Shown here: positions 1 through 43,869 of the stretch, piece by piece | How positions within the stretch are numbered: position 1 is the stretch's first letter | Layout of the letters: each line of letters starts with the position of its first letter | Source of the DNA: an uncultured Spirochaetota bacterium | GTDB lineage: Bacteria; Spirochaetota; Brevinematia; Brevinematales; JAOACQ01 | Length of the DNA: 64,000 bases | Reading direction: 5' to 3' | Assembly (NCBI GenBank): GCA_963835575.1 | Contig: CAWIGG010000002.1 | Span: 224,001 to 288,000, forward strand | Program-made: the position numbers and the translations under genes | The notes under the pieces: model-generated | Database searches by the model: none | What the model saw: the letters and a program-made list of their open reading frames with translations, nothing else | Told to the model about the DNA's origin: nothing

Positions 1-2
1 AC

Positions 3-1322
3 CTTCTCTACGGCGCTCTTCCCGGCGGTCCGGATTCCAGCGATAATTACACCGATGATGTGGAACAATATGTTTACACCGAAGTCGGGATCGATTATAA
101 CGCCGGTCTTGTCGGGGCTCTGGCTGCCCTGACGAAAACATACGGCGCCTCCCAGAGCCCTGAGGCTACTCCCGGCATTGAATCTACCAACGCGCCATGT
201 TATGTCACCGCTTATGTGATGAATGAGGCCTCCGACCATTCGACAATCAGGGCGTTTTTCCACAATGATTCCGTGCTGCCGCCTCATTATGAAAATCAGC
301 TGTCCTTCCGTTATTTCTTTAATTTAAGCGAATATTTCGCCCAGGGTCTGAACGCCAGTGCAGTAACCTCATCCATATTCTACTCGGCCTTAAGCGGAGG
401 GACCCTGACTGCCCCGACCGTATGGGATGACGCGAATCATATATATTATGTTGAAGCCAGCATTGCCGGATCAGATTTGTACGGCAAAGCCGAATTTCAG
501 TTCTCGCTGGCGTCCTACGGCGCCGCTATCTGGGATCCGTCCAATGATTTTTCCAGGACTGGGCTTTCAACTGCAACTAATGACATAATAGCAACCAATA
601 TTGCTGTTTATAGAAACGGCGTCAAAATATTCGGGAATGAGGCGCCCAAGGGCGCCACTTCCAGCAGTACGGCGTCTTCTGCTGCCGTCAGCTCGAGCCT
701 GGCCGCATCCAGTGCGGCTTCAAGCGTTGCCAGCAGTGTTGCCTCATCGGCTGCTGTGAGTTCGAGCCTGGCCGCATCCAGCGTCGCTTCTTCTGCGGCA
801 GTCAGTTCGAGCAGGTCTTCCGCAGCGAGCAGCGTGGTATCCAGCGCCGCATCTTCAGCGGCTATCAGTTCCAGCAGATCAAGCGTAGCATCTTCTGCAG
901 CGGTTAGCTCGAGCCGGTCGAGCGTCGCATCCTCTATTGCTGTGAGTTCGAGCCTGGCCGCATCCAGTGTTGCTTCCAGCACAGCTGCTTCATCCGGCAG
1001 CGGATACGCTGTTAATTATACTGTTAATAATGACTGGGGTGCGGGCGCTACATGCACAGTGACAATAAAGAACAATTCTGCCACAGCCCTTTCGAGCTGG
1101 TCTCTTGTCTGGACATTTGCGGGAAATCAGCAGATCACTCAGATCTGGAGCGCTGCGCAGACAACCAGCGGCGAGACAGTTACGGCCGTCAATCTCAGCT
1201 ATAACGGCACGATCGGCGCGAGCGGCGGGACTCTGAGCTTCGGATTAAATTTAAGCTACAGCGGAGCGAACGCAAAGCCGACGGCGTTTACACTGAACGG
1301 GACGGCATGCACACTCTATTAA
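3..1322 (+). CDS. GH9 cellulase, 5'-truncated by the window edge: GH9 C-terminus + CBM3c-like module + Ser/Ala linker + CBM2
   Basis: Frame is open from base 3 (LLYGALPGGPDSSDNYTDDVEQYVYTEVGIDYNAGLVGALAAL), the GH9 C-terminal catalytic-acid motif; then SFRYFFNLSE...WDPSNDFS (CBM3-like); ends in CBM2. Confidence 0.85.
   Translation, partial: LLYGALPGGPDSSDNYTDDVEQYVYTEVGIDYNAGLVGALAALTKTYGASQSPEATPGIESTNAPCYVTAYVMNEASDHSTIRAFFHNDSVLPPHYENQLSFRYFFNLSEYFAQGLNASAVTSSIFYSALSGGTLTAPTVWDDANHIYYVEASIAGSDLYGKAEFQFSLASYGAAIWDPSNDFSRTGLSTATNDIIATNIAVYRNGVKIFGNEAPKGATSSSTASSAAVSSSLAASSAASSVASSVASSAAVSSSLAASSVASSAAVSSSRSSAASSVVSSAASSAAISSSRSSVASSAAVSSSRSSVASSIAVSSSLAASSVASSTAASSGSGYAVNYTVNNDWGAGATCTVTIKNNSATALSSWSLVWTFAGNQQITQIWSAAQTTSGETVTAVNLSYNGTIGASGGTLSFGLNLSYSGANAKPTAFTLNGTACTLY
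1002..1322 (+). repeat. CBM2-encoding C-terminal module, first of 11 near-identical 321-bp copies; the others start at 2976, 5108, 7035, 9168, 11316, 13665, 16918, 19031, 39796 and 43549
   Basis: Each copy reads GYAVNY.V.NDWG.GAT...FTLNG.AC..Y-stop, 106 aa without indels; Trp pattern typical of CBM2. Confidence 0.92.
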
Positions 1323-1345
1323 ATTTAAAATCTTTATTTTGATCT

Positions 1346-1382
1346 AAATATACCGTCCTTCGTTATGAAGGGCGGTATATTT
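1346..1382 (+). terminator. Intergenic stem-loop (terminator or mRNA stabiliser)
   Basis: aaatataccgtccttc-gttat-gaagggcggtatattt inverted repeat between genes 1 and 2. Confidence 0.6.
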
Positions 1383-1403
1383 CCATACAGGGAGAAAAGT
1401 TTT

Positions 1404-3296
1404 ATGAACATGAGACAAAAATCACAATTATCAAAAAGTATTATCCTGATTTTTCTGGCTTTAATAATGGGCTCCTGTACGGTTTTATCACCGGACCACG
1501 TTAATAGCGGCAGTCAGATAAATAATAATACTGAGAGAGCAACGGACATGAATAGTTTTGTCAAGACTTCCGGAACGCAGTTTGTCGTCAGCGGGAAAAC
1601 TTTTTATTTTAACGGGGCCAACCAGTATTATCTGTTCTACAAATCCCATGCCATGGTTACCGAGGTTATCACCGATGCCGCCGCTCTGGGACTTACCGTT
1701 ATCAGGACCTGGGGTTTCTGCGACGGAGCGCCAAAGGACAACAACTTCGGCTTCCAGCAGAGCGCCGGGGTTTATGATGAGGCGACATTCAAACAGATGG
1801 ATTTTACGATCAATACCTGCAAACAATACGGCATCCGTCTGGTTATCCCGCTGGTCAATAACTGGGACGATATGGGCGGTATGGACCAGTATGTCATATG
1901 GGCAGGAGCTTCAGCTCATGACGATTTTTACACAAACGTGCAGTGCCGGACCCTTTATAAGAGCTATGTCAATTATTTTTTGAACAGGACGAATTCTATA
2001 ACGGGAGTCGTGTATAAAAACGATCCCACCATCATGATGTGGGAACTGGCCAATGAGCCCCGCTGCGACAGCGACATGACCGGCATGAAGCTGAGCAACT
2101 GGATCAATGAAATGGCCGGTTATATCAAGAGCATCGATCAGAACCATCTGGTTTCGATCGGTTCAGAAGGATTTTTCAAGGGGGTCGGATACGGCTATCT
2201 TTATGACGGCTCTTCGGGATGTGATTTTGTCGGCCATAACAGGATCCAGTATATTGACGCGTGTTCCGCTCATCTTTATCCATCCAGCTGGGGCATTTCC
2301 ACGAACGATGCCGTCAACTGGATCATTATGGGGGCGACGAACGCTCATGTCACAGTAGGCAAGCCGTATTATCTGGGTGAATTCGGTTATCCGGATCATA
2401 CCGCGCGCAATCAGATTTATCAGGACTGGTACAATACGCTTTATGCTTACAACGCGGACGGGGCCATGTTCTGGCTTCTGAGCGGCCATCAGGATGACGG
2501 TTCCCTCTATCCGGACTATGACGGTTTTACCGTCTATTATCCCCAGGACACAAATACATGCGCCGTTATATCGGCATACTCCGTCAAGGCAAACGCCGAA
2601 ACCGGGCAAACCCCGGCTTCCGCGGCCAGCAGTACTGCTGTATCTTCTGTCAGTTCGAGCCGGTCTTCCAGCAGTGCGAGCAGCGCAGTTTCCTCGTCAG
2701 TCATTTCCAGCCGCTCGAGCTCGAGCGCGGCAATTTCATCGGCAGTCAGTTCGAGCCGGTCGAGCGTTGCATCCTCAATTGCCGTAAGTTCGAGCCATTC
2801 CAGTGCAGCTTCTTCTGCGGCTGTGAGTTCGAGCAGATCGAGCGTAGCATCTTCAGTTGCGGTAAGCTCCAGCCGGTCGAGCGTAGCTTCTTCAGCAGCA
2901 GTCAGCTCAAGCCTTGCCGCATCCAGTGTTGCAGCTTCTAGCGTGGCTTCCAGCACAGCAGTTTCATCAGGCAGCGGATATGCAGTTAATTACACCGTCA
3001 ACAATGACTGGGGTGCGGGCGCAACATGCACAGTGACGATTAAGAACAATAGCGCGACAGCCCTCAGCAGCTGGTCTCTTGTCTGGACTTTTGCAGGCAA
3101 CCAGGCTATAACCCAGATATGGAGCGCCAGTCAGACTACCAGCGGTGAAACAGTGACTGCCGTGAATTTAAGCTACAACGGTACGATCGGCGCGAGCGGC
3201 GGGACTCAGAGCTTTGGCTTCAATCTGAGCTACAGCGGATCCAATGCAAAACCGGCTTCGTTCACTTTGAATGGGTCGGCGTGCACGCTTTATTAA
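1404..3296 (+). CDS. GH5 (subfamily 7-like) beta-mannanase lipoprotein + linker + CBM2
   Basis: GANQYY, IRTWGFCDG, LVNNWDDMGG, WELANEPR (acid/base), YLGEFG (nucleophile), FWLL; GGAG RBS before ATG 1404; lipobox-like MGSC. Confidence 0.88.
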   Translation: MNMRQKSQLSKSIILIFLALIMGSCTVLSPDHVNSGSQINNNTERATDMNSFVKTSGTQFVVSGKTFYFNGANQYYLFYKSHAMVTEVITDAAALGLTVIRTWGFCDGAPKDNNFGFQQSAGVYDEATFKQMDFTINTCKQYGIRLVIPLVNNWDDMGGMDQYVIWAGASAHDDFYTNVQCRTLYKSYVNYFLNRTNSITGVVYKNDPTIMMWELANEPRCDSDMTGMKLSNWINEMAGYIKSIDQNHLVSIGSEGFFKGVGYGYLYDGSSGCDFVGHNRIQYIDACSAHLYPSSWGISTNDAVNWIIMGATNAHVTVGKPYYLGEFGYPDHTARNQIYQDWYNTLYAYNADGAMFWLLSGHQDDGSLYPDYDGFTVYYPQDTNTCAVISAYSVKANAETGQTPASAASSTAVSSVSSSRSSSSASSAVSSSVISSRSSSSAAISSAVSSSRSSVASSIAVSSSHSSAASSAAVSSSRSSVASSVAVSSSRSSVASSAAVSSSLAASSVAASSVASSTAVSSGSGYAVNYTVNNDWGAGATCTVTIKNNSATALSSWSLVWTFAGNQAITQIWSASQTTSGETVTAVNLSYNGTIGASGGTQSFGFNLSYSGSNAKPASFTLNGSACTLY

Positions 3297-3643: not shown

Positions 3644-5428
3644 ATGTCAGGGAAAAAATCAGGAAAACTTTTCTGTCTGTTTTTAGCAGGCGTGTTTTTT
3701 GTTCTTCAATATGCAGGCTGTTCTTTACAGTTACCGCAGGATTCCGGAACGCAGAGTCTGATGGTTAATCAGCCCAGAGCGACCGTCAGCAGTGTCGGAC
3801 GTCTGACAGGCATCAACTGGTTCGGCTTTGAGACCAGCGCTTACTGCCCGCATGGACTGTATATCAGGGATTATAAATCCATGCTGAAACAAATCAAGGA
3901 TCTGGGATTCAACTGTATCCGCCTGCCGTGGTGCAACGATATGCTGACTCAGACCACCCCTCCCTCGTCCATTCAAATCAACACAAATGAAAGAACGGAT
4001 GCCTATACCGGCCTGCATAACCTGAATGCCGATCTCGCCGGTTTGTCCCCTATACAGGTCATGGACAAGGTAATTGATGAAGCTACCAGAGTCGACGGTC
4101 TTAAGATCATTCTGGACTGCCATTCGCATACTGTTGACAACTATAATAATGAACCTTTATGGTACACATCATCCTGTTCAGAAAGTAAAGCGATTTCCGA
4201 TTGGGTCTTACTTATTAACCGTTATAAGAATAACCCCTATGTCTGCGGAGCAGACCTCAAAAACGAACCCCATGGCAATATGGGCTCATCCGGTATGAAG
4301 CCTCCCGCCACCTGGGGTTATGACGAGCCCGGTCAGGGAACAACAGACTGGAAAGCGGCCGCTGAAAGGATCGGTACCGCCATCCTTAACGCCAATCCCA
4401 ATATGATCATCATCGTGGAAGGCGTGGAATGCTATTACAATTATCCGACCGACACAGTCACCAATTTCTTCTGGTGGGGCGGCGAATTATCAGGCGTTGC
4501 CGACCATCCTATCACCGCTATTCCTTCCGCTCAGCTAATGTATTCGGCGCATGAATATGGTCCTCATGTGTATAACCAGCCCTGGTTTCAGGATTCGACT
4601 TTCCCGAATAATATGCCGGCCATCTGGGACAAGCACTATTATTTCATCAAGAAGAATGGAATCGGCTCTCTCTTCTTTGGTGAATTCGGTATTATGGAAT
4701 CTGAAGTTGACGCCGGCGGCGTGGCAGCCACATGGTATAAGAACTTTATGGCTTATATCGGAACCGCCAACAGCTGGACATTCTGGTGCATCAATCCCGA
4801 CTCAGGAGACACCGGCGGTATATTACAGAGCGACTGGGTTACGGTAGAAACGGGTAAATATAATATATTAAAGCCTTATCTGGCCGCTCAATTCTCTCCT
4901 CTCGGCGGCGGATCAAGTTCATCTTCCTCCTCTGTCGCGGCGAGTTCGAGCCTGGCCGCATCCAGCGTTGCGTCTTCGGTAACAGTCAGCTCCAGCCGTT
5001 CGAGCGCCGCTTCATCTATAGCTGTCAGCTCGAGCCGGGCCGCATCCAGTGTGGCTTCCAGTGTTGCGGTTTCCAGTATAGCTTCCAGCACAGCCGCTTC
5101 ATCAGGCGGTTACGCTGTTAATTACACAGTCAATAATGACTGGGGCGCAGGAGCTACGTGCACAGTAACAGTTAAGAATAACAGTGCGGCGGCTCTTTCC
5201 AGCTGGTCTCTTGTCTGGACATTCGCGGGCAATCAGCAGATTACGCAGATCTGGAGCGCTTCTCAAACGACCAGCGGCGAAACGGTAACAGCCGTCAATC
5301 TCAGTTACAACGGTGCGATAGGAGCGAACGGCGGGACACAGAGCTTCGGCTTTAATCTGAGCTACAGCGGTTCCAACGCCAAACCCGCGGCTTTTACTCT
5401 GAATGGGACAGCTTGTACAACTTATTGA
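3644..5428 (+). CDS. GH5 subfamily 1-like endoglucanase lipoprotein + linker + CBM2
   Basis: GINWFGFET, GFNCIRLP, DLKNEPH, HEYGP, FGEFG, WTFWCINPDSGDTGG (E1/Cel5A-type motifs); GGAGG RBS before 3644. Confidence 0.92.
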   Translation: MSGKKSGKLFCLFLAGVFFVLQYAGCSLQLPQDSGTQSLMVNQPRATVSSVGRLTGINWFGFETSAYCPHGLYIRDYKSMLKQIKDLGFNCIRLPWCNDMLTQTTPPSSIQINTNERTDAYTGLHNLNADLAGLSPIQVMDKVIDEATRVDGLKIILDCHSHTVDNYNNEPLWYTSSCSESKAISDWVLLINRYKNNPYVCGADLKNEPHGNMGSSGMKPPATWGYDEPGQGTTDWKAAAERIGTAILNANPNMIIIVEGVECYYNYPTDTVTNFFWWGGELSGVADHPITAIPSAQLMYSAHEYGPHVYNQPWFQDSTFPNNMPAIWDKHYYFIKKNGIGSLFFGEFGIMESEVDAGGVAATWYKNFMAYIGTANSWTFWCINPDSGDTGGILQSDWVTVETGKYNILKPYLAAQFSPLGGGSSSSSSSVAASSSLAASSVASSVTVSSSRSSAASSIAVSSSRAASSVASSVAVSSIASSTAASSGGYAVNYTVNNDWGAGATCTVTVKNNSAAALSSWSLVWTFAGNQQITQIWSASQTTSGETVTAVNLSYNGAIGANGGTQSFGFNLSYSGSNAKPAAFTLNGTACTTY

Positions 5429-5513: not shown

Positions 5514-7355
5514 ATGTCAGGAAAAAAATCAGGAAAATTCTTCTGTCTATTTTTAGCAGGCGCGTTTTTTGTTCTTTATTTTGCCGCTTGTTCTATACAG
5601 CCTGCACAGGATTCCGGGGCGCGTAGTCCGGCGGTCTTTCAGACCAGGGCGACAGTCACTGTCAATAACGTGGGAAGGCTGACCGGTGTGAACTGGTTCG
5701 GCTTTGAAACAGGGAATCTCTGTCCCCATGGTCTCTGGTCGAGAGACTACAAATCCATGCTCAAGCAGATTAAAGACCTGGGCTTTAACTGCATCCGTTT
5801 GCCCTGGTGTATTCCCGCGCTGACGGGAAGTCCGTCCAGTATCCAGATCAATGTTTACGGGATAGATGCCTACACAGGCCAGACTAATTTAAATGCCGAT
5901 CTGAGCGGTCTATCCTCTATTCAGGTTATGGATAAAATCATCGAGGTGGGAACACAGACTTATGGCCTTAAATTTATACTTGACTGTCATTCGCTTGTCG
6001 CCGATCAATACCAGAGCGAACCGTTGTGGTACACTTCCGGCGTTTCGGAAAGCCAATGGATTTCCGCATGGACGACCATTGTCAGCCGTTATGCGAATAA
6101 TTCTTATGTGATCGGATGTGATCTGAAAAATGAGCCGCATGGCAATACCGGCACCGGCTATAAACCCCCTGCGACATGGGGATATCAGGCTTCCGGTTAC
6201 GATGCATCGTCAAGTCCCACCGACTGGAAAGCGGCCGCTGAAAGGTGCGGTAAGGCGATTCTTGCGGTTAATCCCAATATCATTATCATGGTAGAAGGTG
6301 TGGAGCAATATAATAACGATTATTTCTGGTGGGGCGGCAATTTGGAAGGAGTGGCATCAAACCAGATCAGCACTTCCAGTATTCCTGCAAGCCAGTTGAT
6401 GTATTCCTGGCATGAATACGGCCCGGAGGTTTTCAACCAGTCCTATTTCACGAATTCCAGTTTTCCGAACAATATGCCCGCGATCTGGGATCAATTTTAC
6501 TATTTTATCAAAAAGCAGAATATTGCGCCCCTGTATCTTGGGGAGTTCGGCATAACGGAAGCCGGAGTCGACGCCGGTGGAACTGCGGCGACATGGTACA
6601 AGTCTTTAATGGCGTATGTGGGCAGTAATGTCAACTGGACGTTCTGGTGCATAAACCCTGATTCGGGAGATACAGGAGGCATCCTCCAGGATGACTGGGT
6701 CACTGTCAATACGGGCAAATACAATATTCTGAAGCCTTATCTGGCCGCTCAATTTTCACCCCTCGGCGGCGGGTCAAGTTCATCTTCATCCTCTGTTGCA
6801 GCGAGTTCGAGCCTGGCCGCATCCAGCGCTGCGTCTTCGGTAACAGTCAGCTCCAGCCGTTCGAGTGCTGCATCATCAGTTGCTGTGAGCTCCAGCCGGT
6901 CAAGTGCAGCTTCTTCAGTTGCTGTGAGCTCCAGCCGTTCGAGTGTTGCATCATCGGCAGCAGTCAGTTCAAGCCTGGCCGCATCCAGTGCGGCTTCCAG
7001 CGCTGCGTCGAGCGCGGCTTCCAGCACATCCGGCGGTTATGCCGTAAACTACAATGTCTCTAATGATTGGGGCACGGGCGCCACTGTCACGGTGACGATA
7101 AAGAATAATTCTGCCGCGGCCCTCTCGAGCTGGTCTCTTGTCTGGACATTCGCGGGCAATCAGCAGATTACGCAGATCTGGAGCGCTTCTCAAACGACCA
7201 GCGGCGAAACGGTAACAGCCGTCAATCTCAGTTACAACGGCATGATCGGAGCGAACGGCGGGACACTGGCTTTCGGATTTAACCTGAGCTACAGCGGCTC
7301 GAACGCCAAGCCGGCGGCCTTTACCCTGAACGGCACGGCATGTACGTTATATTAA
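5514..7355 (+). CDS. GH5 subfamily 1-like endoglucanase lipoprotein + linker + CBM2 (tandem paralog of 3644)
   Basis: Same motifs (GVNWFGFET, KNEPH, LGEFG, NPDSGDTGG); the RBS context atggaggaacattatgtcagg is identical to that of the preceding gene. Confidence 0.92.
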   Translation: MSGKKSGKFFCLFLAGAFFVLYFAACSIQPAQDSGARSPAVFQTRATVTVNNVGRLTGVNWFGFETGNLCPHGLWSRDYKSMLKQIKDLGFNCIRLPWCIPALTGSPSSIQINVYGIDAYTGQTNLNADLSGLSSIQVMDKIIEVGTQTYGLKFILDCHSLVADQYQSEPLWYTSGVSESQWISAWTTIVSRYANNSYVIGCDLKNEPHGNTGTGYKPPATWGYQASGYDASSSPTDWKAAAERCGKAILAVNPNIIIMVEGVEQYNNDYFWWGGNLEGVASNQISTSSIPASQLMYSWHEYGPEVFNQSYFTNSSFPNNMPAIWDQFYYFIKKQNIAPLYLGEFGITEAGVDAGGTAATWYKSLMAYVGSNVNWTFWCINPDSGDTGGILQDDWVTVNTGKYNILKPYLAAQFSPLGGGSSSSSSSVAASSSLAASSAASSVTVSSSRSSAASSVAVSSSRSSAASSVAVSSSRSSVASSAAVSSSLAASSAASSAASSAASSTSGGYAVNYNVSNDWGTGATVTVTIKNNSAAALSSWSLVWTFAGNQQITQIWSASQTTSGETVTAVNLSYNGMIGANGGTLAFGFNLSYSGSNAKPAAFTLNGTACTLY

Positions 7356-7394: not shown

Positions 7395-9488
7395 ATGAAA
7401 AAAGCGGGTTTTTTAGTTTTTGCGGGAATAGGCCTCTTACTGTTTTCACTGTACTTTGCTTGCAGCCTGAACCTCGGAGCAAGCAATAACGGTAAAGGCA
7501 ATGCCCCAGGAATAACCATACCCAGGGCCTTTGGCGATAGGATCACGGTCTCCGGCACCCAATTTTTCGCGGGCAGCAGCCGGATTTGGATCAACGGCGC
7601 TAATACGCCATGGAACAGCTGGGATGATATGGGCGGTACTATGGATACTAATTGGTGGAACACTGAGTTTCAAACTCTGCATACTAATGGCATTAATGCC
7701 ACACGCGTCTGGCTCATCTGCAGCGGTGATGTCGGAATTGTTATAGACAGCAGCGGCTATGTCTCAAACGCTACCGCCACTTTCTGGAATCACCTCGACA
7801 GTCTTATGCAGATATGCCAGAATCAACAGGTATATCTTGACGCTACCTTAATATCATTCGATTGTGTTAAGAACAATACTGCCTCTAACTGGAAAAATAT
7901 GTTTAATAGTGACAGCAGTATTGATTCATTTGTCAGTAATTTCTTGATTCCTTTAGTTAACCGTTACAAAAATAATCCCTGGCTCTGGACTATTGATCTA
8001 TGCAATGAACCGGATTGGCTTTTCGAGACTTATGGTATTCCATGGAACCGGATTCAGACATATTTCGCTAAATGCGCTGTAGGAATCCATGCGAACAGCA
8101 GCATCCTGGTCAATGTTGGAATGGCAATAATCAAATATAATAGTACTACATGCGCCGGTGCTCAGGGTAATATGGTAAGCGACGCCTCACTGCAAGCATT
8201 AGTGGGAGGCGATACAAGGGCGAAAGTCGATTTTTGGAATGTTCACTACTATCCCTGGATGGATCCATACTGGCCGGTTCCATTTAACGTGACACCGGTT
8301 GTTTTCGGTCTTGACGCGAGCAAACCGTCGATAGTCGGGGAATGCCCGGCTAAGGATTCGACAAACCATACTATTATAGGGGATTATGAAAATGCTTACC
8401 AGAATGGCTGGCAGGGAGTCATGCCATGGACGGCCAACGGTGTGGATGCTAACGGAGACATCACTACTTTGGGGCCTGCTACCCTGGCATTCCTGGGCAA
8501 TCATTACAGTCTTGTGTTTCCAGGCGGAACTAATAGCAGCTCGTCTAGTTTATCCAGCAGTTCGAGCACTTCGACTTCGCTCAGTGCAAGCTCTGCGTCA
8601 TCGGCTGTTAGTTCAAGCCGTTCGAGTGCCGTATCCAGCACTGTCAGTTCGATCAGCTCGGCAGCAAGCTCTTCGTCCGCTTCCGCACAGTATCTGAATA
8701 TCAATCTTCCCTTTACTAATGATGGAGTAGGAGAATATTACTGGCAGACAAGCGGCACGATTACCAGCATGAACTCATGGAATCTCGATGCTCTGGATGT
8801 GAATGGAACAAGCTTTAAAAACGTTTATGTCAGCGGCAGCGGCCTGCCCGCGAAGCAGAACGGGTACTACTATATTCACTATAAAGGCTCCTATTCCTAC
8901 AGTCACGTTGAAATTGCCGGCTCCGGAACGGTAAGCAGCAGCTCCGTTACCTCGGCCGCAAGCAGTTCGAGTTCTGTGTCATCCGCGGCGAGTTCGAGCC
9001 TGGCCGCATCCAGCGCTGCGTCTTCGGTAACAGTCAGCTCCAGCCGGTCAAGTGCAGCTTCTTCAGTTGCTGTGAGCTCCAGCCGTTCGAGTGTTGCATC
9101 ATCGGTAGCAGTCAGTTCCAGCCTGGCTGCATCCAGTGTGGCTTCCAGCGCCGCATCGAGCGCGGGAGGATACGCTGTGAATTACAATGTCTCTAATGAT
9201 TGGGGCGCGGGCGCCACAGTCACGGTAACGATAAAGAATAATTCTGCCGCAGCCCTTTCGAGCTGGTCTCTTGTCTGGACATTCGCTGGTAATCAGGCGA
9301 TCACTCAGATCTGGAGCGCTTCTCAAACGACCAGCGGCGAAACGGTAACAGCCGTCAATCTCAGTTACAATGGTGCGATCGGAGCGAACGGCGGGACACT
9401 GGCTTTCGGATTTAACTTGAGCTACAGCGGTTCCAACGCCAAACCGACGGCTTTCACGCTGAATGGAACGGCATGTTCAACATATTGA
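7395..9488 (+). CDS. GH5-type hydrolase (GH5_10 mannanase-like) + CBM64 + CBM2, lipoprotein
   Basis: NGANTPW, RVWL, DLCNEPDW, VHYY, IVGECP, MPW; internal module LPFTNDGVGEYYWQ...NSWNLDALDVNG...GYYYIHY...HVEI matches the CBM64 pattern. Confidence 0.75.
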   Translation: MKKAGFLVFAGIGLLLFSLYFACSLNLGASNNGKGNAPGITIPRAFGDRITVSGTQFFAGSSRIWINGANTPWNSWDDMGGTMDTNWWNTEFQTLHTNGINATRVWLICSGDVGIVIDSSGYVSNATATFWNHLDSLMQICQNQQVYLDATLISFDCVKNNTASNWKNMFNSDSSIDSFVSNFLIPLVNRYKNNPWLWTIDLCNEPDWLFETYGIPWNRIQTYFAKCAVGIHANSSILVNVGMAIIKYNSTTCAGAQGNMVSDASLQALVGGDTRAKVDFWNVHYYPWMDPYWPVPFNVTPVVFGLDASKPSIVGECPAKDSTNHTIIGDYENAYQNGWQGVMPWTANGVDANGDITTLGPATLAFLGNHYSLVFPGGTNSSSSSLSSSSSTSTSLSASSASSAVSSSRSSAVSSTVSSISSAASSSSASAQYLNINLPFTNDGVGEYYWQTSGTITSMNSWNLDALDVNGTSFKNVYVSGSGLPAKQNGYYYIHYKGSYSYSHVEIAGSGTVSSSSVTSAASSSSSVSSAASSSLAASSAASSVTVSSSRSSAASSVAVSSSRSSVASSVAVSSSLAASSVASSAASSAGGYAVNYNVSNDWGAGATVTVTIKNNSAAALSSWSLVWTFAGNQAITQIWSASQTTSGETVTAVNLSYNGAIGANGGTLAFGFNLSYSGSNAKPTAFTLNGTACSTY

Positions 9489-9710: not shown

Positions 9711-11636
9711 ATGAATCACTTGAAGGTTAAAGCGATTTTACTGTTCGGAAGCATACTGTGCTTTTTATGGTCATGCTCCGTAAACCCTATGAGTGAGAAA
9801 GGCCAGTCATTGTCTTTCACTGGGGTGAAAGCGACGGCGAACGGAAAGTTTTTGGGAAATATCTGGGGAGGCAATACCGAACCTCTGAACTTCAGCAAGT
9901 ATTGGAACCAGGTGACGCCTGAAAACGCAGGAAAATGGGGATCAGTGGAATTGTCCCAGGGCACTTACAACTGGAGTGATCTGGATGCGCAGTACAGTTA
10001 TGCCAAATCCAAAGGCTTCCCGTTTAAGTTTCATAATCTGGTATGGGGAAGCCAGCAGCCGAGCTGGATCAGTTCATTATCTGCCACAAACCAGGTGCTG
10101 GCTGTAATTGATTGGATCTCGAATGTCGGCGCAAGATACTCAAACCTTGATTTTATCGACGTGGTCAACGAACCGATTAAAACCGGCCAGCCTCCCTATG
10201 GGGCGGCCATCGGCGGCAGCGGTTCGACGGGATGGGACTGGGTCATTTTTGCATTTACGGTGGCACGGAAATATTGCGGCAATGCAAAACTGCTTGTTAA
10301 TGAATACAGTGTGGAAAATGATACCTCTGCAGCAGCGCAATACACCAATATTATCAATTTGCTGAAAAGCCGTAATCTGATAGATGGAGTGGGGATCCAG
10401 GGCCATTATTTCAGTTTGGACAGTGATGATACCGGTACTTTATCAAACTGTCTGTCAATTATATTGTCCACAGGCCTTCCGATTTACATTTCTGAGCTTG
10501 ACCTTGACGGAGATGATGCGACTCAGCTTTCCAGATACCAAAAATATTTTCCGATCCTCTGGAATTACTCAACGATTAAAGGCGTCACACTCTGGGGATA
10601 CATCCAGGGTTCAATCTGGACAACAAACGCTTATCTCTTAACCACTTCCGGGACGGAACGCCCGGCATTGACCTGGCTGATGCAGTATGTCGGCAATACT
10701 ACCTCGACCAGTTCCAGCAGCCCGGTTGCGTCTTCCAGCAGCGCGGCTTCGTCCGTACCTGTAAGCTCCAGCCGGTCGTCCGCGGCGAGCAGTATTGCTT
10801 CTTCAGTTGCTGTCAGCTCCAGCCAGGCGAGCAGTATAGCCAGTTCCGCTTCATCCTCAGTCCAGTATCAGAATATTACTCTTCCGTTCAGCTTTGACGG
10901 CACGGGAGAATTATACTGGCAGACAAGCGGTACGATCACCAGCATGAATTCCTGGAATCTTGATGCGCTGGATGTGAATGGGACAAGCTTTAAAAATGTG
11001 TATGTCGCCGGAAGCAGCCTGCCCGCGAAACAGAATGGATACTACTACATTCACTATAAGGGGTCATATTCCTATAGTCATGTTGAAATTGCCGGCACAT
11101 CAGGATCGGTGAGCAGCAGTTCGATAGCTGTCAGTTCCAGCCCGGCAAGCAGTGTCGCCTCTTCAATAGCGGCAAGCTCCAGCCGTGCAGCCTCTTCAAT
11201 AGCAGCTAGCTCTAGCAGATCGAGTATTGCATCTTCAGTAGCAGTCAGCTCAAGCCTGGCCGCATCCAGTGTCGCTTCCAGTGCGGCATCGAGCACGGCT
11301 TCCAGCACAAGCGGCGGGTATGCAGTGAATTATACCGTCAATAATGACTGGGGCGCGGGCGCCACAGTCACGGTAACCATAAAGAACAATTCCGCAACGG
11401 CCCTTTCGAGCTGGTCTCTTGTCTGGACATTTGCGGGCAATCAGCAGATCACTCAGATCTGGAGCGCCACGCAGACAACCAGCGGCGCGACCGTTACTGT
11501 GAATAGTTTAACTTATAACGGCGCGATCGGCGCGAACGGCGGAACGCAGAGTTTCGGCTTCAATCTGAGCTACAGCGGCTCGAACGCCAAGCCGGCAGCA
11601 TTTACTTTGAATGGGACGGCATGCTCGACTTATTGA
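9711..11636 (+). CDS. GH10 endo-xylanase lipoprotein + CBM64 + CBM2
   Basis: WNQVTPENAGKW, FHNLVWGSQQP, DVVNEP, GIQGH, ISELD, TLWGY. Confidence 0.92.
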   Translation: MNHLKVKAILLFGSILCFLWSCSVNPMSEKGQSLSFTGVKATANGKFLGNIWGGNTEPLNFSKYWNQVTPENAGKWGSVELSQGTYNWSDLDAQYSYAKSKGFPFKFHNLVWGSQQPSWISSLSATNQVLAVIDWISNVGARYSNLDFIDVVNEPIKTGQPPYGAAIGGSGSTGWDWVIFAFTVARKYCGNAKLLVNEYSVENDTSAAAQYTNIINLLKSRNLIDGVGIQGHYFSLDSDDTGTLSNCLSIILSTGLPIYISELDLDGDDATQLSRYQKYFPILWNYSTIKGVTLWGYIQGSIWTTNAYLLTTSGTERPALTWLMQYVGNTTSTSSSSPVASSSSAASSVPVSSSRSSAASSIASSVAVSSSQASSIASSASSSVQYQNITLPFSFDGTGELYWQTSGTITSMNSWNLDALDVNGTSFKNVYVAGSSLPAKQNGYYYIHYKGSYSYSHVEIAGTSGSVSSSSIAVSSSPASSVASSIAASSSRAASSIAASSSRSSIASSVAVSSSLAASSVASSAASSTASSTSGGYAVNYTVNNDWGAGATVTVTIKNNSATALSSWSLVWTFAGNQQITQIWSATQTTSGATVTVNSLTYNGAIGANGGTQSFGFNLSYSGSNAKPAAFTLNGTACSTY

Positions 11637-36679: not shown

Positions 36680-38005
36680 ATGAAAAGAAAAAATATTTTG
36701 ATAAATTTTCCGGCGGTCATTTTGATTCTCTCCGTCCTGGCTTTAGCAGGATGCGCCGTTAAGAAGAAACCTCTCGGCTTTCATGCCCTGAAGATAAACG
36801 GGCAGTTCGTGGATGCCGTAATTTTTCAGGAAGAATATAACAAGTATTTTGAAAATTTCAGCAAAAATTCCAGGATAATGAGGATGACTGATGATGAACG
36901 AGAGGCAGAGGTTCTCCAGAAAGTTATAGATAGGGAGATTACTGAAAATTACATCACAAACCGCAAGGATATCGTTGTCACGGATCAGGAAGCGGCTGAT
37001 TTTTTGAACCATTATATCAAGCCGGGCATGTATATGGATATTGATGAGGATGAGCCGGTTCCCCTGAGCTACAGGGATGTCGTTGTCAGCCAGGCAATTT
37101 TTTACTCCGTCAAACCCTATCTGATGAGGATGAAGATCATCCCTGAACTGGCCGGAAAGTATCATATTACCGTCAGTCAGAAAGAGATAAAGGATGAATA
37201 CAATCGGCAGCTTAAAAATAATTATCTTGTCATCGGGAGGCATATAGTTTTGCCGAATGGGCAGATGGAGCTCGCCAATGAACTCGCGGAAAAAATGAAA
37301 AAAGAGTCCGATGTCGCCGATCTGGTCCAGAAATATTCCATAGACGCCGACGCGAAGGATAAAGGCGGGGTGATGGGGAATATCGCCAATGCCCCGATTA
37401 CGCCCGATTTTCCAAAAAAAATGCTGAATGTCAGGCCAAGGGAAATCATCAAGCCTATCCAGCTTAAATACGGGATCGAGATCATCAGGATAGATGATGT
37501 CCTCCAGTTTAATCATACAGAGGATGAGATCGGGAAAAGCATCCTGATGAATAAATTCTATACTTCACCGGCCTATCATGACTGGGTGGAAACTCTGAAA
37601 TCCGGCAATAATATAGAAGTTGTCGATCCGGTATTCAAGGCATACGATCTTTATAAAACCGGCAAATACGCGGAAGCCGCGCCTCTCTTCATAAAATTAT
37701 ACCAGACCGGGAAAGCTCGTGATAAACTGGACATGGCAGTGGACAGTTTTAAAAAATCGGGTGATGGAATTGATGTTGTCCATTGGAGTGAGGAAGGCGT
37801 AAAAGCTTTTCCCGCTTTCAGGTGGAATTATTATCTGTCCCAGGCCGTTGGGTTCATGATGCAGCAGAAAACAAATGACTGTCTCCTGGCCATGAAGAAC
37901 GCTGAAAAAGCGGCCGGCGATGAAATCTTAAAAGAAATAACCGATCAGTATTTTGCATTGGGTTTGACCAACGAGGGCAGCAGATATAGCAGCGGCGGAA
38001 AATAA
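36680..38005 (+). CDS. Parvulin/PrsA-SurA-like peptidyl-prolyl isomerase lipoprotein with a TPR-like C-terminus
   Basis: LAGC lipobox; RHIV, KYSID..KDKGG.MG, PIQLKYGIEII. Confidence 0.7.
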   Translation: MKRKNILINFPAVILILSVLALAGCAVKKKPLGFHALKINGQFVDAVIFQEEYNKYFENFSKNSRIMRMTDDEREAEVLQKVIDREITENYITNRKDIVVTDQEAADFLNHYIKPGMYMDIDEDEPVPLSYRDVVVSQAIFYSVKPYLMRMKIIPELAGKYHITVSQKEIKDEYNRQLKNNYLVIGRHIVLPNGQMELANELAEKMKKESDVADLVQKYSIDADAKDKGGVMGNIANAPITPDFPKKMLNVRPREIIKPIQLKYGIEIIRIDDVLQFNHTEDEIGKSILMNKFYTSPAYHDWVETLKSGNNIEVVDPVFKAYDLYKTGKYAEAAPLFIKLYQTGKARDKLDMAVDSFKKSGDGIDVVHWSEEGVKAFPAFRWNYYLSQAVGFMMQQKTNDCLLAMKNAEKAAGDEILKEITDQYFALGLTNEGSRYSSGGK

Positions 38006-38096: not shown

Positions 38097-38189
38097 AATC
38101 ATACTTATAGTCGGACAAAAACAGTACTTTTCGTACGGACAAATCCATACCTCATGGTCTGGTAAATTTATTTTAATATTTGATATAAT
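38097..38189 (+). promoter_or_regulatory. Triple direct-repeat operator (23-bp period) and TATAAT
   Basis: TAC[T/C] at 38102, 38125 and 38148; tataat at 38184. Confidence 0.68.
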
Positions 38190-38277
38190 ATTTATGTTTC
38201 AATTTGTTAATGATAAGGTCAAGCATTATTTAATAGAGTAAATTATTTATAGAAAATATAAAAGTAAGGAGGAAAAA

Positions 38278-40116
38278 ATGAAAACAAGTGGAAAAATCCT
38301 GGTAAGATTATCGATTGTTGCCGCGGTTGTTTTGAGCTTTATTGTTTTTACAGCCTGCTCTCTTCAAAATCCCGACAACAACGGCAGTACAACTGTCCAG
38401 AACAGTACAACACAGACAAGGGCTTTTGCCGGGATGACGGAAGCGCTTACATTCTTTCACGCCAATTATTGCGGCTCAGGCCAGACCGTTTCCTGGAGAA
38501 GCAACTGTCATATGGGCGACAATCCCACCGGCGGTTACCATGACGCCGGCGACCACGTGAAGTTCAATCTTCCCGCGGCTTTCATGGCATCGATGCTCTG
38601 CTGGGCCGATTATGAATACGGCGGATTTTCAGCAGACGCGGAAATTTCAAGGGCCCTCAGCTATCTGAGCGCATGCTGGAACGGCAGCACTTATATCTAT
38701 CAGGTGGGCGACGGCGGTACAGACCATGCCTACTGGGGTTCTCCCGAACTTCAGACCGGTGCAAGGCCGTCATACAGCACGACCCAGGCTTCAGCCGCAA
38801 TGGCGCAGGCCGCCGCTGCTTTCGCGCTGGCCTCTATTACCGGCCATACAGGCGGCAATATCAATACTGCAAAATCCCTTTTTACAGCCGCTGACAACGC
38901 AAAGAGTGATGCCGGGTATGCAGCAGCCGCTAATGGTTATTATACATCAGGCGGATTCTATGACGATTTGATGTGGGCCGCTGTATGGCTCTATATTGCC
39001 ACAAGCGATTCGTCTTATCTGACAAAGGCTGAAGGCTATTACAGCAATCTGAATGCCGATATCATCTGGACACATTGCTGGGATGATTCTCGCTACGGCG
39101 CCATCCTGAAGCTCGCCCAGCTGACCGGCAAATCGGTCTATATCAACCGGGTCGAAACCAACCTTGACTGGTGGCAGAAAGGCACCAGCGGCGGTATTAC
39201 CTATACGCCCGGCGGACTGCCCTATCTGAACAACTGGGGATGCCTGCGCTATGCTTCTGCCGAAGCTTTCCTGGCCAAGATATGGGCCGATTATACATCA
39301 TTGGGCACTGCCAGCAAGAAAGCCGGCTATAAGACTTTTGCCAACAATGTGCTCAATTATATTGAAGGATCCAATCCTCAGAGTGAATGCTACATTATCG
39401 GTGTTGGAAGCAAATACCCTCAGTGTCCTCACCACCGTGCGGCAAATCCGGGCAAGACTTGCCCTTCATTGCATGTGCTCACAGGAGCCATGCCCGGCGG
39501 GCCTGATTCAGGTGATAACTTTGTCGATGATCCGAATCAGTACCAGTATACTGAACCTGCTATCGACTACAACGCATGTCTTGTTGCCGCTCTCGCGGCC
39601 GCAAACGGCACGCTGAAATCCCATAATTATTCCTCAGCCAGCAGTTCTTCGACAGCTTCGAGCCAGGCTAGCGTCGCTTCTTCAGCGGCAGTTAGCTCCA
39701 GCCGTTCGAGTGTTGCTTCTTCTGCTGCTGTAAGTTCCAGCCGTTCAAGTGTTGCATCCAGTGCGGCGGCTTCCAGTACAGCTGCCTCATCAGGCGGTTA
39801 CGCTGTGAATTATACTGTTAATAATGACTGGGGTGCGGGCGCAACATGCACAGTGACCATCAAGAACAACAGCGCTACAGCAGTGAATGGATGGACATTA
39901 GTCTGGACATTCGCCGGCAATCAGACGCTGACGCAGATTTGGAACGCGACATATACTGCGAGCGGCGCAACAATTACTGTTAAGAATGCAAGCTTTAACA
40001 ATATCATCGGCGCGAGCGGCGGAACGCAGAGCTTCGGCTTCAATCTGAGCTACAGCGGTTCGAACGCCAAACCGGCTTCGTTCACATTGAACGGAACGGC
40101 ATGCACAACATATTGA
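38278..40116 (+). CDS. GH9 endoglucanase lipoprotein + linker + CBM2
   Basis: GGYHDAGDHVKF, QVGDGGTDHAYWG, DDLMWAA, WGCLRYA, PHHR, TEPAIDYNA. Confidence 0.93.
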   Translation: MKTSGKILVRLSIVAAVVLSFIVFTACSLQNPDNNGSTTVQNSTTQTRAFAGMTEALTFFHANYCGSGQTVSWRSNCHMGDNPTGGYHDAGDHVKFNLPAAFMASMLCWADYEYGGFSADAEISRALSYLSACWNGSTYIYQVGDGGTDHAYWGSPELQTGARPSYSTTQASAAMAQAAAAFALASITGHTGGNINTAKSLFTAADNAKSDAGYAAAANGYYTSGGFYDDLMWAAVWLYIATSDSSYLTKAEGYYSNLNADIIWTHCWDDSRYGAILKLAQLTGKSVYINRVETNLDWWQKGTSGGITYTPGGLPYLNNWGCLRYASAEAFLAKIWADYTSLGTASKKAGYKTFANNVLNYIEGSNPQSECYIIGVGSKYPQCPHHRAANPGKTCPSLHVLTGAMPGGPDSGDNFVDDPNQYQYTEPAIDYNACLVAALAAANGTLKSHNYSSASSSSTASSQASVASSAAVSSSRSSVASSAAVSSSRSSVASSAAASSTAASSGGYAVNYTVNNDWGAGATCTVTIKNNSATAVNGWTLVWTFAGNQTLTQIWNATYTASGATITVKNASFNNIIGASGGTQSFGFNLSYSGSNAKPASFTLNGTACTTY

Positions 40117-40196: not shown

Positions 40197-40199
40197 ATT

Positions 40200-41077: not shown

Positions 41078-41180
41078 TACAGGGATTTATTTTTAGATAA
41101 TCATATTAATTTCTTTTATAATAACGAGTTACCATTATTATGTTTAATAATCTTTTGAACTGAACAATTTTTAATATTCC

Positions 41181-41272
41181 TGTCTTACCTTAGGTCGGAT
41201 AAAAACCATACCTAAGGTACGGTTAAAACCATACCTTATGTTCTGACATATTTTTTTAATATTTTTTATACT
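41181..41272 (+). promoter_or_regulatory. Triple direct-repeat operator (23-bp period) and TATACT
   Basis: TACC at 41186, 41209 and 41232; tatact at 41267. Confidence 0.72.
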
Positions 41273-41475
41273 AACGCTGGCGAATTGTCATTTTTTGATT
41301 GGGATAAATCCCTGATTATATCTCGTTTTTAATTATATATAAATTTAATATAAAAAGGAGGAAATGATGGGAAAAACTTAAAAAAATAACAGGTCTGAAT
41401 AAAAAAGTTTAAAGTGTTAGTAAGAGCTTTATGAAAAGGTTATTACCTTTCATGAAGAAAAGTAAGGAGGAAAAG

Positions 41476-43869
41476 ATGAAGTCAAAAGTAAGAATCGGAT
41501 TAAAACTTCTGGCTGTTGTTTCCATTGTTTTGAGCGTTATTATTTTTGCCGCCTGTGCGCTTCAGAATCTTGACAACTCTAACGGCAGTACAACTGTCCA
41601 GAACAGTACAACACAGACAAGGGCTTTTGCCGGGATGACGGAAGCGCTTACATTCTTTCACGCCAATTATTGCGGCTCAGGCCAGACCGTTTCCTGGAGA
41701 AGCAACTGTCATATGGGCGACAATCCCACCGGCGGTTACCATGACGCCGGCGACCACGTGAAGTTCAATCTTCCCGCGGCTTTCATGGCATCGATGCTCT
41801 GCTGGGCCGATTATGAATACGGCGGATTTTCAGCAGACGCGGAAATTTCAAGGGCCCTCAGCTATCTGAGCGCATGCTGGAACGGCAGCACTTATATCTA
41901 TCAGGTGGGCGACGGCGGTACAGACCATGCCTACTGGGGTTCTCCCGAACTTCAGACCGGTGCAAGGCCGTCATACAGCACGACCCAGGCTTCAGCCGCA
42001 ATGGCGCAGGCCGCCGCTGCTTTCGCGCTGGCCTCTATTACCGGCCATACCGGCGGCAATATCAATACTGCAAAATCCCTTTTTACAGCCGCTGACAACG
42101 CAAAGAGTGATGCCGGGTATGCAGCAGCCGCCAATGGTTATTATACATCAGGCGGATTCTATGATGATCTGATGTGGGCCGCAATATGGATTTATCTTGC
42201 CACAAGCGACACCAACTACCTGAACAAAGCAGAATCTTATTATACTAATTTGAACTCCGATATCATCTGGACACATTGCTGGGATGATTCCCGCTACGGC
42301 GCCATCCTGAAGCTTGCCCAGATTACCGGAAAGAAAGTCTATATCAACCGGGTCGAAACCAACCTTGACTGGTGGCAGAAAGGCACCAGCGGCGGTATTA
42401 CCTATACGCCCGGCGGACTGCCCTATCTGAACAACTGGGGATGCCTGCGCTATGCTTCTGCCGAAGCTTTCCTGGCCAAGATATGGGCCGATTATACATC
42501 ATTGGGCACTGCCAGCAAGAAAGCCGGCTATAAGACTTTTGCCAACAATGTGCTCAATTATATTGAAGGATCCAATCCTCAGAGTGAATGCTACATTATC
42601 GGTGTTGGAAGCAAATACCCTCAGTGTCCTCACCACCGTGCGGCAAATCCGGGCAAGACTTGCCCTTCATTGCATGTGCTCACAGGAGCCATGCCCGGCG
42701 GGCCTGATTCAGGTGATAACTTTGTCGATGATCCGAATCAGTACCAGTATACTGAACCTGCTATCGACTACAACGCATGTCTTGTTGCCGCTCTCGCGGC
42801 CGCAAACGGCACGCTGAAATCCCCTGTTTATCCGACACCCACTCCGCCCCCGGTAAGTGCGGTTGGGACTGGAACTGGATTAACAGGCACATATTATGCT
42901 AATATGAATTTAACTGCTCCTGCTGCTTATTCTGAATTAGACACAAACATTAACTTTAACTGGAATGGCTCTGCACCCGCTACCAATATGCCTGCAACAT
43001 CATGGTCGGCTAAGTGGACCGGTTATATTCAGGCCAGAATGTCGACAACATATACTTTCCATCTTCTGTCTGATGACGGATCTACGCTGACTATTAACAA
43101 CGTTTCAGTCATTTCCGACTGGACAGATCATGCCAATGATGCGCAGTATAAAACTTCTGGAACAATTGCTATGACTGCAGGTACGCTTTATCCAATCACC
43201 GTAACTTACTATCAGGACGGTGGTTCGTCGGCTATTACCTTGAGCTGGGAAAATGGATGGCTGGCTGAAGAAGTTGTTCCGACAACCCAGCTGTATCCTT
43301 CAACGAATGGTACTAGCAGCAGTTCCAGTGTTGCTTCTTCAGTTGCAGCAAGCTCCAGCCGGGCAAGCAGTGTAGCTTCTTCTGTTGCAGTATCCAGTGT
43401 TGCTTCTTCAGTTGCGGTGAGCTCCAGCCGGTCGAGTGTAGCTTCTTCTGTTGCAGTATCCAGTGTTGCATCCTCAGTTGCGGTGAGCTCCAGCCGGTCG
43501 AGCGCCGCTTCAAGCGCGGCGGCTTCCAGCACAGCTGCCTCATCAGGCGGTTACGCTGTGAATTATACTGTTAATAATGACTGGGGTGCGGGCGCAACAT
43601 GCACAGTGACGATTAAGAACAACAGCGCGACAGCCCTCAGCAGCTGGTCTCTTGTCTGGACTTTTGCAGGCAACCAGGCTATAACCCAGATATGGAGCGC
43701 CAGTCAGACTACCAGCGGTGAAACAGTGACTGCCGTGAATTTAAGCTACAACGGTACGATCGGCGCTAACGGCGGTACGCAAGCTTTCGGCTTTAATCTG
43801 AGCTACAGCGGCGCGAACGCCAAGCCGGCCGCATTTACTTTGAACGGAACGGCATGCACACTCTATTAG
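41476..43869 (+). CDS. GH9 endoglucanase lipoprotein + PA14 domain + linker + CBM2
   Basis: Catalytic domain nearly identical to that of 38278; GTGLTGTYY, INFNW, SAKWTGYI, SDDGS, YYQDGG is PA14; AGGAGG RBS before 41476. Confidence 0.92.
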   Translation: MKSKVRIGLKLLAVVSIVLSVIIFAACALQNLDNSNGSTTVQNSTTQTRAFAGMTEALTFFHANYCGSGQTVSWRSNCHMGDNPTGGYHDAGDHVKFNLPAAFMASMLCWADYEYGGFSADAEISRALSYLSACWNGSTYIYQVGDGGTDHAYWGSPELQTGARPSYSTTQASAAMAQAAAAFALASITGHTGGNINTAKSLFTAADNAKSDAGYAAAANGYYTSGGFYDDLMWAAIWIYLATSDTNYLNKAESYYTNLNSDIIWTHCWDDSRYGAILKLAQITGKKVYINRVETNLDWWQKGTSGGITYTPGGLPYLNNWGCLRYASAEAFLAKIWADYTSLGTASKKAGYKTFANNVLNYIEGSNPQSECYIIGVGSKYPQCPHHRAANPGKTCPSLHVLTGAMPGGPDSGDNFVDDPNQYQYTEPAIDYNACLVAALAAANGTLKSPVYPTPTPPPVSAVGTGTGLTGTYYANMNLTAPAAYSELDTNINFNWNGSAPATNMPATSWSAKWTGYIQARMSTTYTFHLLSDDGSTLTINNVSVISDWTDHANDAQYKTSGTIAMTAGTLYPITVTYYQDGGSSAITLSWENGWLAEEVVPTTQLYPSTNGTSSSSSVASSVAASSSRASSVASSVAVSSVASSVAVSSSRSSVASSVAVSSVASSVAVSSSRSSAASSAAASSTAASSGGYAVNYTVNNDWGAGATCTVTIKNNSATALSSWSLVWTFAGNQAITQIWSASQTTSGETVTAVNLSYNGTIGANGGTQAFGFNLSYSGANAKPAAFTLNGTACTLY

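Follow-up and report, generated by a model that had tools for sequence, protein, structure and literature searches.

The 64,000-nucleotide stretch analysed here (hereafter the window; G000:C2:224001-288000) belongs to the 4.39 Mb, 94% complete genome of an uncultured bacterium (G000), whose RecA shares 88% identity with that of a Brevinematales metagenome-assembled genome (MAG) and 75% with that of Thermospira aquatica, placing the organism in the order Brevinematales. The window holds eleven genes for carbohydrate-active enzymes ending in a family 2 carbohydrate-binding module (CBM), part of a set of 25 hydrolases of this genome that end in one indel-free CBM2 of 106 amino acids (aa). We propose, with a probability of about 50%, that these 25 are a co-regulated set of plant-cell-wall hydrolases, nearly all exported as lipoproteins, released by proteolysis at a conserved Lys/Arg-Ala motif, and provided with Ser-rich linkers glycosylated by a protein of glycosyltransferase family 39 (GT39).

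The cluster enters the window through the 3' half of a glycoside hydrolase (GH) gene of composition GH9-CBM3-Ser linker-CBM2 (1..1322; whole gene G000:C2:222695-225322, 875 aa, with its lipobox and K-A motif outside the window), followed by three GH5-Ser linker-CBM2 genes, one of mannanase type (1404..3296; lipobox Cys at 1476, R-A at 1536-1541) and two of endoglucanase type (3644..5428; Cys 3719, R-A 3776-3781; and 5514..7355; Cys 5589, R-A 5646-5651). Two genes carry a CBM64 between Ser linkers, ahead of the CBM2: a GH5 mannanase-like one (the 7374 gene, 7395..9488; Cys 7461, R-A 7524-7529), which has no catalytic match in Pfam and matches GH5 mannanase structures (4oou, E 3e-23), and a GH10 xylanase (9711..11636; Cys 9774, K-A 9828-9833). 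In the second GH10 gene (GH10-CBM3-Ser-CBM2, 11875..13985; K-A at 11991) the signal peptide, from an ATG at 11875, lies in another frame, the sequence being one base short of its paralogue near 11944, which is either an assembly error or the mark of a pseudogene. Further on lie a GH51-like domain-CBM6-Ser-CBM2 gene with a weak match to GH51 (14536..17238; E 4e-6; Cys 14620, R-A 14704-14709), a GH8 endoglucanase-Ser-CBM2 gene (17561..19351; Cys 17630, R-A 17696-17701), the single-sequence structure model of which had a mean pLDDT (model confidence score) of 30.7 and was not used, a GH9-Ser-CBM2 gene (38278..40116; Cys 38356, R-A 38419-38424) and a GH9-PA14-Ser-CBM2 gene (41476..43869; Cys 41554, R-A 41620-41625). 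An initial annotation of the window had described eleven co-oriented genes, of families including GH9, GH5, GH10 and GH8, with a common CBM2 terminus and two internal CBM64 modules, and this account holds: all eleven lie on the + strand where it had placed them, Pfam returns GH9 and GH5 three times each, GH10 twice and GH8, the CBM2 aligns without gaps in 11/11 at 76-93% identity to the first copy, and the CBM64 modules are found at about 8691 and 10866. The lipobox Cys it saw in ten visible N-termini is in frame in nine, the second GH10 being the exception, and the genes, co-oriented as they are, do not form a single block, as an 18,926-bp gap (19352-38277) holds other genes. Expected catalytic motifs were found in all 10 window enzymes checked; the GH subfamily labels rest in part on PDB matches.

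Genome-wide, 21 of the 25 CBM2 genes fall within a 75-kb region that begins 31 kb upstream of the window, 19 of them in C2:193020-243351 and two beyond the 18.9-kb gap, while four are remote; outside the window there are thus ten upstream and four elsewhere. The set comprises eight GH9, eight GH5 or GH5-like and two GH10 enzymes, with single members of GH8, GH12, GH27, GH48, GH116, the weak GH51-like family and GH30 (the last by eye), and Pfam scans of all 25 proteins gave at most one catalytic family per protein. The GH48, with the same CBM2, is encoded elsewhere in the genome, and this was the only one of 11 genomes searched to have a GH48. Dockerin (PF00404) and cohesin (PF00963) had no match in the genome, with control genomes positive, and SusD (PF07980) had none in 9/9 genomes, with a positive control; a search confined to the window found no SusC-like TonB-dependent transporter among the 30 proteins scanned. 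The cellulosome-free character first suggested is supported, as is the broader view of a clustered system for cellulose, xylan and mannan in a spirochaete, in favour of which RecA and the GH48-CBM2 both speak. Eight GH9 and a GH48 point to Brevinematales as an overlooked cellulose degrader.

The expansion appears confined to this genome: among 40 relatives only one (G001) has the CBM2, in a single copy, so that 1/41 genomes shows the expansion, and among 401 spirochaete genomes, in each of which a share of the candidates was scored, none other exceeds two CBM2 matches. Of 148 CBM2 profile matches, 17 pass the lipobox rule, seven of them from G000 itself, and no second large set emerged; metagenome contigs contributed 14 distant CBM2 loci (46-58%), and three loci on contigs of other genomes were homologues of signal-peptidase-I type or partial ones. 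One of the three is in a Spirochaetales MAG (L011:323-7295), where the GH9 and GH5 homologues have ordinary signal peptides and every one of them ends in a dockerin-like repeat, a putative third terminal cassette on the same toolkit.

In the module itself, W12-G13 and W49 are invariant in 11/11 copies and the third position is Tyr or Phe, as in PDB 3ndy, the best solved match (E 5e-36), which we take to be the CBM2 of Clostridium cellulovorans EngD. CBM2a modules are recognised by their surface aromatics and by a Gly after the first Trp; the present module fits this cellulose-binding rule, and binding is predicted. EngD, to which the likeness extends through this closest solved match, is one free enzyme of a bacterium that makes cellulosomes and not a genome-wide cassette. 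Protein identity among the copies here spans 69-100% (median 81%, one pair 100%), while a median of 58% of four-fold sites differ, and such synonymous divergence at retained amino-acid identity argues for old copies under selection. They are also mosaic, with identical 105-base blocks shared between different enzymes, and site incompatibility increases with distance (permutation p = 0.0005), so that the set looks like an ancient expansion, maintained by selection and patchily recombined. In G000 the three CBM64 copies are all internal, ahead of the CBM2, which is the terminal module in 25/25; G007 has a tandem CBM64 in the corresponding position, and G001 has one CBM64-ended and one CBM2-ended enzyme. 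These arrangements are consistent with a CBM2 that was first added to CBM64 and may then have replaced it. The array offers a natural case of a single module spread over many unrelated enzymes. In two neighbouring GH5 genes of the cluster (L004:10513 and L004:12863; G000:C2:201895 and 204170), Lys replaces the acid/base Glu (N-K-P).

A rule-based lipobox scan of the genome returned 218 candidates, of which 14 with further membrane helices were removed, leaving 204 lipoproteins; these include 23 of the 25 CBM2 proteins, the exceptions being the frameshifted second GH10 and the GH48, the signal of which is free of Cys. With 204 predicted lipoproteins genome-wide, the lipobox alone is unremarkable in this organism. 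In 21 of the 23, however, a Lys/Arg-Ala pair stands 18-28 residues past the lipobox Cys, at the start of the catalytic domain, and the other two read K-S-A and R-M-A; within the same interval (+17 to +29 after the Cys, set on the CBM2 proteins themselves) the pair occurs in 17 of 181 other lipoproteins (Fisher p = 3e-16), and over 5000 shuffles within each sequence the number of motif-bearers averaged 1.4 and never exceeded 6. The residue preceding Lys/Arg in the 23 is T in 10 and V, S, L and P in two each. The tethers are otherwise dissimilar (median identity 24%, 2/253 pairs above 50%) and precede several GH families, so that simple duplication does not explain the motif. Three of the 17 other motif-bearers are CBM3-bearing hydrolases, which brings the motif to 24/26 lipoprotein hydrolases with CBM2 or CBM3, against 0/8 Pfam-confirmed and 0/14 loosely chosen ones without either module, a non-exhaustive comparison group chosen with BLAST and by visual inspection. 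The structures of solved homologues (1kwf/1cem, 8gf3, 2c0h) start 1-3 residues past the Lys/Arg, as extrapolated from alignments. The lipid, initially taken for an anchor, would in light of this motif rather be a removable export handle. A remote GH5 lipoprotein gene with a K-A motif (L091:142-1899; G000:C2:1805842-1807600) has an in-frame stop before its Ser linker and CBM3.

The motif recurs in CBM-tagged enzymes of other spirochaetes, where its strict form was found in 21/30 (interval +9 to +30, chosen after viewing; one G007 gene, with its start beyond the region, uncounted): 5/7 in G120, 6/7 in G224, 6/7 in G068, where the seventh reads R-G, 2/3 in G007 and 2/2 in G011. Three of these genomes, G120, G224 and G068, represent one family with seven CBM64 matches each, and the CBM64 of G120 matches PDB 5e9p, the structure of the Spirochaeta thermophila module, at 185 bits.

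On the opposite strand, next to the cluster, lies a membrane glycosyltransferase of the GT39/PMT family (20091..21869, -; 592 aa), a candidate linker O-glycosyltransferase with an F5/8-like loop, Pfam matches to PMT and PMT_4TMC over cut-off, and top homologues named GT39. It has YFDEIY at residue 175, the loop Asp-Glu motif of GT39/PMT proteins. On the curated protein O-mannosyltransferase equivalog NF058602 it scores 92.7 bits, far below the cut-off of 800. Its start is overlapped by a gene for a GT87-like membrane protein (21866..23443, -). Among the 401 spirochaete genomes an orthologue (E <= 1e-30) occurs in four (G000, G068, G120 and G224), and in each of these a CBM-tagged hydrolase is encoded no more than about 4 kb away. 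The orthologues of G120 and G224 are fused to the GT87-like part, with a GT2 gene and then a CBM64 hydrolase following, and that of G068 is equally close to such a hydrolase. A distant PMT-family gene (23-25%) is found in G001, G007, G011 and G000, as the only such gene or as a further one. In Caldicellulosiruptor bescii the GT39 of the glucan degradation locus is needed for glycosylation and stability of cellulases and for growth on crystalline cellulose (PMC6151902). By analogy, the window protein probably, by a narrow measure, O-glycosylates and shields the Ser-rich linkers, all 25 of which are about half Ser and hold 2-5 Arg each, so that shielding would matter if an Arg-specific protease were at work. 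The association suggests that a diderm phylum independently took up the shielding of cellulase linkers by glycans that has been shown in Caldicellulosiruptor.

Co-regulation is indicated by a 33-bp operator-like element common to nine upstream regions of the cluster, made of two AAA[AT]CCATAC-type copies 23 bp apart, which in the window is found on the + strand at 14135..14167, 17359..17391, 38118..38150 and 41202..41234. A matrix built from the nine cluster sites gave 39 genome hits at score 20, namely the nine seeds, a group of 22 identical copies taken for a single repeated element, and eight unique sites; six of these eight precede hydrolases, four of them the remote CBM2 genes (4/4) and the other two CBM3 hydrolases. 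Three shuffled genomes gave 1, 1 and 0 hits. A sugar-binding LacI-type/PAS/LuxR protein (G000:C2:190155-192662) heads the cluster and is its likely regulator; a protein of like architecture adjoins the two-gene locus of G001. For that orthologue no operator hit was obtained at score >=14, and G011 had one. A site resembling the operator lies 368 bp upstream of a gene for a protein with CHU_C, FlgD-Ig and OmpA domains (L106:869-3547; G000:C4:133869), and inside the cluster a 7TM sensor kinase and a GGDEF protein have one receiver domain split by a frameshift (L005:10207-13501; G000:C2:218207-221501).

Taken together, the architecture, the cluster, the motif and the operator-like sites suggest the following course of events. 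The enzymes would very probably undergo Sec export and lipidation at the lipobox Cys, and would then be transferred to the cell surface through the spirochaetal lipoprotein route, a dedicated pathway for surface lipoproteins being described in 10.1101/2022.12.21.521298. There, a cut at the Lys/Arg-Ala motif, which we consider slightly better than an even bet, would free them to bind cellulose through the CBM2, while lipoprotein hydrolases without CBM2 or CBM3, which lack the motif, would remain on the cell; to release only those enzymes that are able to find cellulose by themselves makes functional sense. More tentatively, the cut may be made before the Ala by an Arg/Lys-specific protease. A precedent for such processing is offered by the type V pilins, which are lipidated precursors processed by signal peptidase II and cleaved at an exposed Arg, with an uncleaved anchor protein staying on the membrane (PMC5789003). 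GT39 would shield the Arg-containing linkers from the same activity, and the set as a whole may derive from an older spirochaetal toolkit, the terminal module of which was exchanged for CBM2 and reshuffled through recombination.

The GH48, as the sole enzyme without a lipobox, would leave through the type II-like machine of its own gene cluster: its gene (L006:5883-8384; G000:C2:760799-776348) stands among genes for a secretin, GspE, GspF, a pseudopilin and a prepilin peptidase, and this company of type II secretion/type IV pilus-like genes suggests a separate exit. Secretin was found in 2/5 genomes tested, with scores below the GspD and PilQ cut-offs. The type IX C-terminal sorting domain PF18962 had no match in G000, nor in any control, and the enzymes end in CBM2; an SprA/Sov-like protein of 1891 aa (L107:418-6093) reached 87 bits against a cut-off of 200, showed no link to the CBM2 enzymes and was set aside.

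As for the protease, three C11 lipoprotein peptidases with His-Gly and Asp-Ala-Cys motifs are candidates in G000. Two clostripain-family peptidases are also encoded in a second array (L051; G000:C2:141273-159169), where about nine lipoprotein genes, all in one orientation, have Gly/Ser tethers.

Several results weigh against release as proposed. No protease was found common to all motif-bearing genomes: C11 occurs in 1/5 further genomes and is common among relatives without the toolkit (17/41), C14 in 2/5 without tracking the motif, and both were rejected as the general enzyme; gingipain C25 had no match in 5/5 genomes, with no control genome positive, and a regular-expression scan for further proteases was so coarse that it overlooked signal peptidases I and II themselves. 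Arg is present in every one of the 25 linkers, often in R-S or R-A, so that a promiscuous protease would remove the CBM2. The motif is absent in G001, the closest relative with such enzymes (0/2), in G010 (0/1) and in G151 (0/1), and two of three GH8 lipoproteins without CBM2 have Q-K-S at a similar place. In an out-of-sample comparison of GH5 homologues with a preset interval (110 of 120 listed, four own and six without a usable N-terminus being omitted), K/R-[AGS] occurred in 6/11 lipoproteins with a module and 5/33 without, and in 7/51 and 1/15 homologues of signal-peptidase-I type, while strict K/R-A was found in 1/11 of the lipoproteins with a module; two R-A sites lay just outside the interval, one lipoprotein was misfiled and several positives belong to one clade. 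At this same position, some signal peptides of Firmicutes type terminate in V-K-A or T-K-A. With respect to glycosylation, the three other GT39 genomes belong to one family, which reduces the association to two independent lineages, Ser-linker enzymes occur without an orthologue in G001, G007, G010 and G011, and close GT39 homologues are widespread (Bacillota, Nitrospirota, Geobacter), including organisms not known as cellulose degraders. The cut is an inference, given that no protease tracks the motif and that small-K/R-Ala also fits a signal peptidase I site.

The same observations, cleavage excepted, would be explained equally well by enzymes that stay lipid-anchored and glue the cell to cellulose through the CBM2, the motif being an uncut sorting or flipping signal or an inherited domain boundary. 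The lack of a common protease, the motif-free G001 and the existence of a surface-lipoprotein pathway agree with permanent anchoring, as do the 31 lipobox-anchored carbohydrases of Saccharophagus degradans reported in PMC2386152. A position at the domain boundary, at a variable distance of +18 to +28, suits a cut site over a lipid-end signal, and the association of the motif with cellulose-binding modules is what the release of self-targeting enzymes would produce; we regard permanent anchoring as less likely than release, if still the strongest competitor. The motif may otherwise be a second site of signal-peptidase-I type, cut after the Ala to yield a periplasmic enzyme for a type II-like export, possibly recognising the CBM2. 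The -3/-1 rule of signal peptidase I is fitted by small-K/R-Ala, the residue before Lys/Arg is mostly small or aliphatic, Ala, Gly or Ser follows, ordinary signal peptides of some homologues end in V-K-A or T-K-A, and the genome does have the type II-like genes around the GH48. Signal peptidase I is not known to require Lys/Arg, which is invariant here (23/23) and present in 7/51 homologues of signal-peptidase-I type; moreover, no secretin was found in the motif-bearing G224 and G007, and lipidation would be redundant in such a route, which makes it a rather improbable one.

Least probable by far is that the cassette arose largely as a side effect of duplication and recombination in an expanding, partly decaying array, or of repeat mis-assembly, with no special export logic. 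The frameshift, the Lys that replaces the acid/base Glu in two GH5 genes, the split kinase, the premature stop in the remote GH5, the identical CBM2 pair and the restriction of the expansion to one genome speak for it. It is largely refuted by the old, selected divergence of the CBM2 copies, and further disfavoured by the intact catalytic motifs, by the recurrence of motif and template in distant spirochaetes, and by eight contigs of read run X1 matching the window with 0-1 differences, although these are short, of low depth, and none spans the frameshift near 11944 or either of the Glu-to-Lys codons.

Release at the tether motif is the bold element of the proposal and would be an otherwise undescribed mode of spirochaete secretion, each remaining ingredient (CBM2 with polyserine, lipobox carbohydrases, a terminal CBM, GT39 in the locus, Arg-released lipoproteins) having a precedent. 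The nearest relative is the toolkit of S. thermophila, the glycoside hydrolases of which reportedly carry a repeated terminal CBM, CBM64, as Angelov and colleagues are said to have found in 2011. With the S. thermophila-like genomes (G120, G068) the present set shares orthologous GH9, GH5, GH10 and GH12 domains (42-66% identical to their G120 counterparts), the lipobox, the short tether with R-A, a low-complexity linker, a repeated terminal CBM and an adjacent GT39, so that the template is not new to G000. It differs in having 25 enzymes instead of seven, a terminal CBM2 with CBM64 internal in three, Ser/Ala instead of Pro/Thr linkers, a GH48, and in its origin from a different family and order-level group within the phylum. 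The contrast first drawn between the two systems thus stands as to the position of the modules, but they are closer kin than it assumed, and the present set is a CBM2 variant of the CBM64 toolkit, resembling the glucan degradation locus of Caldicellulosiruptor.

The enzymes of that locus carry CBM3. In both systems the cellulases are clustered, work outside a cellulosome and bear linkers and CBMs, and a GT39 is encoded alongside them, its N-terminal loop being sugar-binding-like (Cbes_1864, 556 aa, likened by description, vs. 592 aa here; PMC6151902). The C. bescii enzymes, of a Gram-positive organism, combine several catalytic domains with Pro/Thr linkers, where those of G000 have one domain, CBM2, Ser linkers and a lipobox in a diderm. 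The type V pilins of Bacteroidota (Mfa1/3/4; PMC5789003) likewise start as lipoprotein precursors, whose short N-terminal extension terminates in an exposed Arg/Lys, a feature seen here at the level of sequence, and their uncleaved members stay anchored as the motif-less hydrolases would; the cargo here is hydrolases, with no pilin fold or polymerisation, and without the gingipain match. In Saccharophagus, Cellvibrio and Teredinibacter (PMC2386152) CBM2 also occurs on many hydrolases, with Ser-rich linkers and many lipobox carbohydrases, but among the tabulated enzymes considered those with a lipobox have no CBM2 and those with CBM2 no lipobox, where 24/25 genes here (one frameshifted) combine both, with one near-uniform CBM2 in a mostly single cluster. 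The literature searched, with subscription papers lying outside it, gave no account of the cluster or of a spirochaete tether motif, S. thermophila papers possibly mentioning lipoprotein signals; a search of PMC13386854 for the relevant terms gave no hits, and PMC11481507 yielded nothing further on either.

More broadly, cellulolytic spirochaetes may share a route of their own, a suggestion we make with some reserve, in which enzymes with a cellulose-binding module are exported as lipoproteins and shed by an Arg/Lys-specific cut at the tether's end, with a co-inherited GT39 shielding the linkers and a terminal CBM64/CBM2 cassette swappable throughout the enzyme set. If true, this would add another design for cellulose attack to cellulosomes, polysaccharide utilization loci and free enzymes secreted by type II or IX systems, testable in S. 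thermophila. The exported proteins of spirochaetes are often lipoproteins, and the tether motif offers a precise and cheap prediction of how they might release enzymes, in the form of exact N-termini for a harmless relative in culture.

Other features of the window are less directly related to the hydrolases. A SurA/PrsA-like peptidyl-prolyl isomerase lipoprotein (36680..38005, +), with two paralogues elsewhere in the genome and a homologue adjoining a GH9-CBM64 gene in G007, is a possible folding helper. Within the gap of the cluster, positions 25432-34775 form an island of lower GC content with a restriction-modification enzyme, an SMC-like ATPase, an S1/P1 nuclease, a REP-associated transposase and RhuM. 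Behind a GH9 gene, positions 40180-41090 (Rfam 40329-41077) are occupied by a group II intron that is shortened internally and contains a reverse-transcriptase fragment; a 99% identical copy lies at C2:221604-222502 (L005:13752-14500), and at least four further near-identical full-length copies are found elsewhere on C2. Downstream of the cluster, the minus strand encodes a lipoprotein of 1118 aa (43989-47345; paralogue L100) with a LamG domain, a hydrolase-like C-terminal part and no K/R-A motif, and two tandem GH5 cellulase-type genes without a CBM (57504-59831), one of them a lipoprotein without the motif. Elsewhere in the genome, a lipoprotein with a thiol-activated cytolysin family domain is encoded at L101:112-1644 (-).

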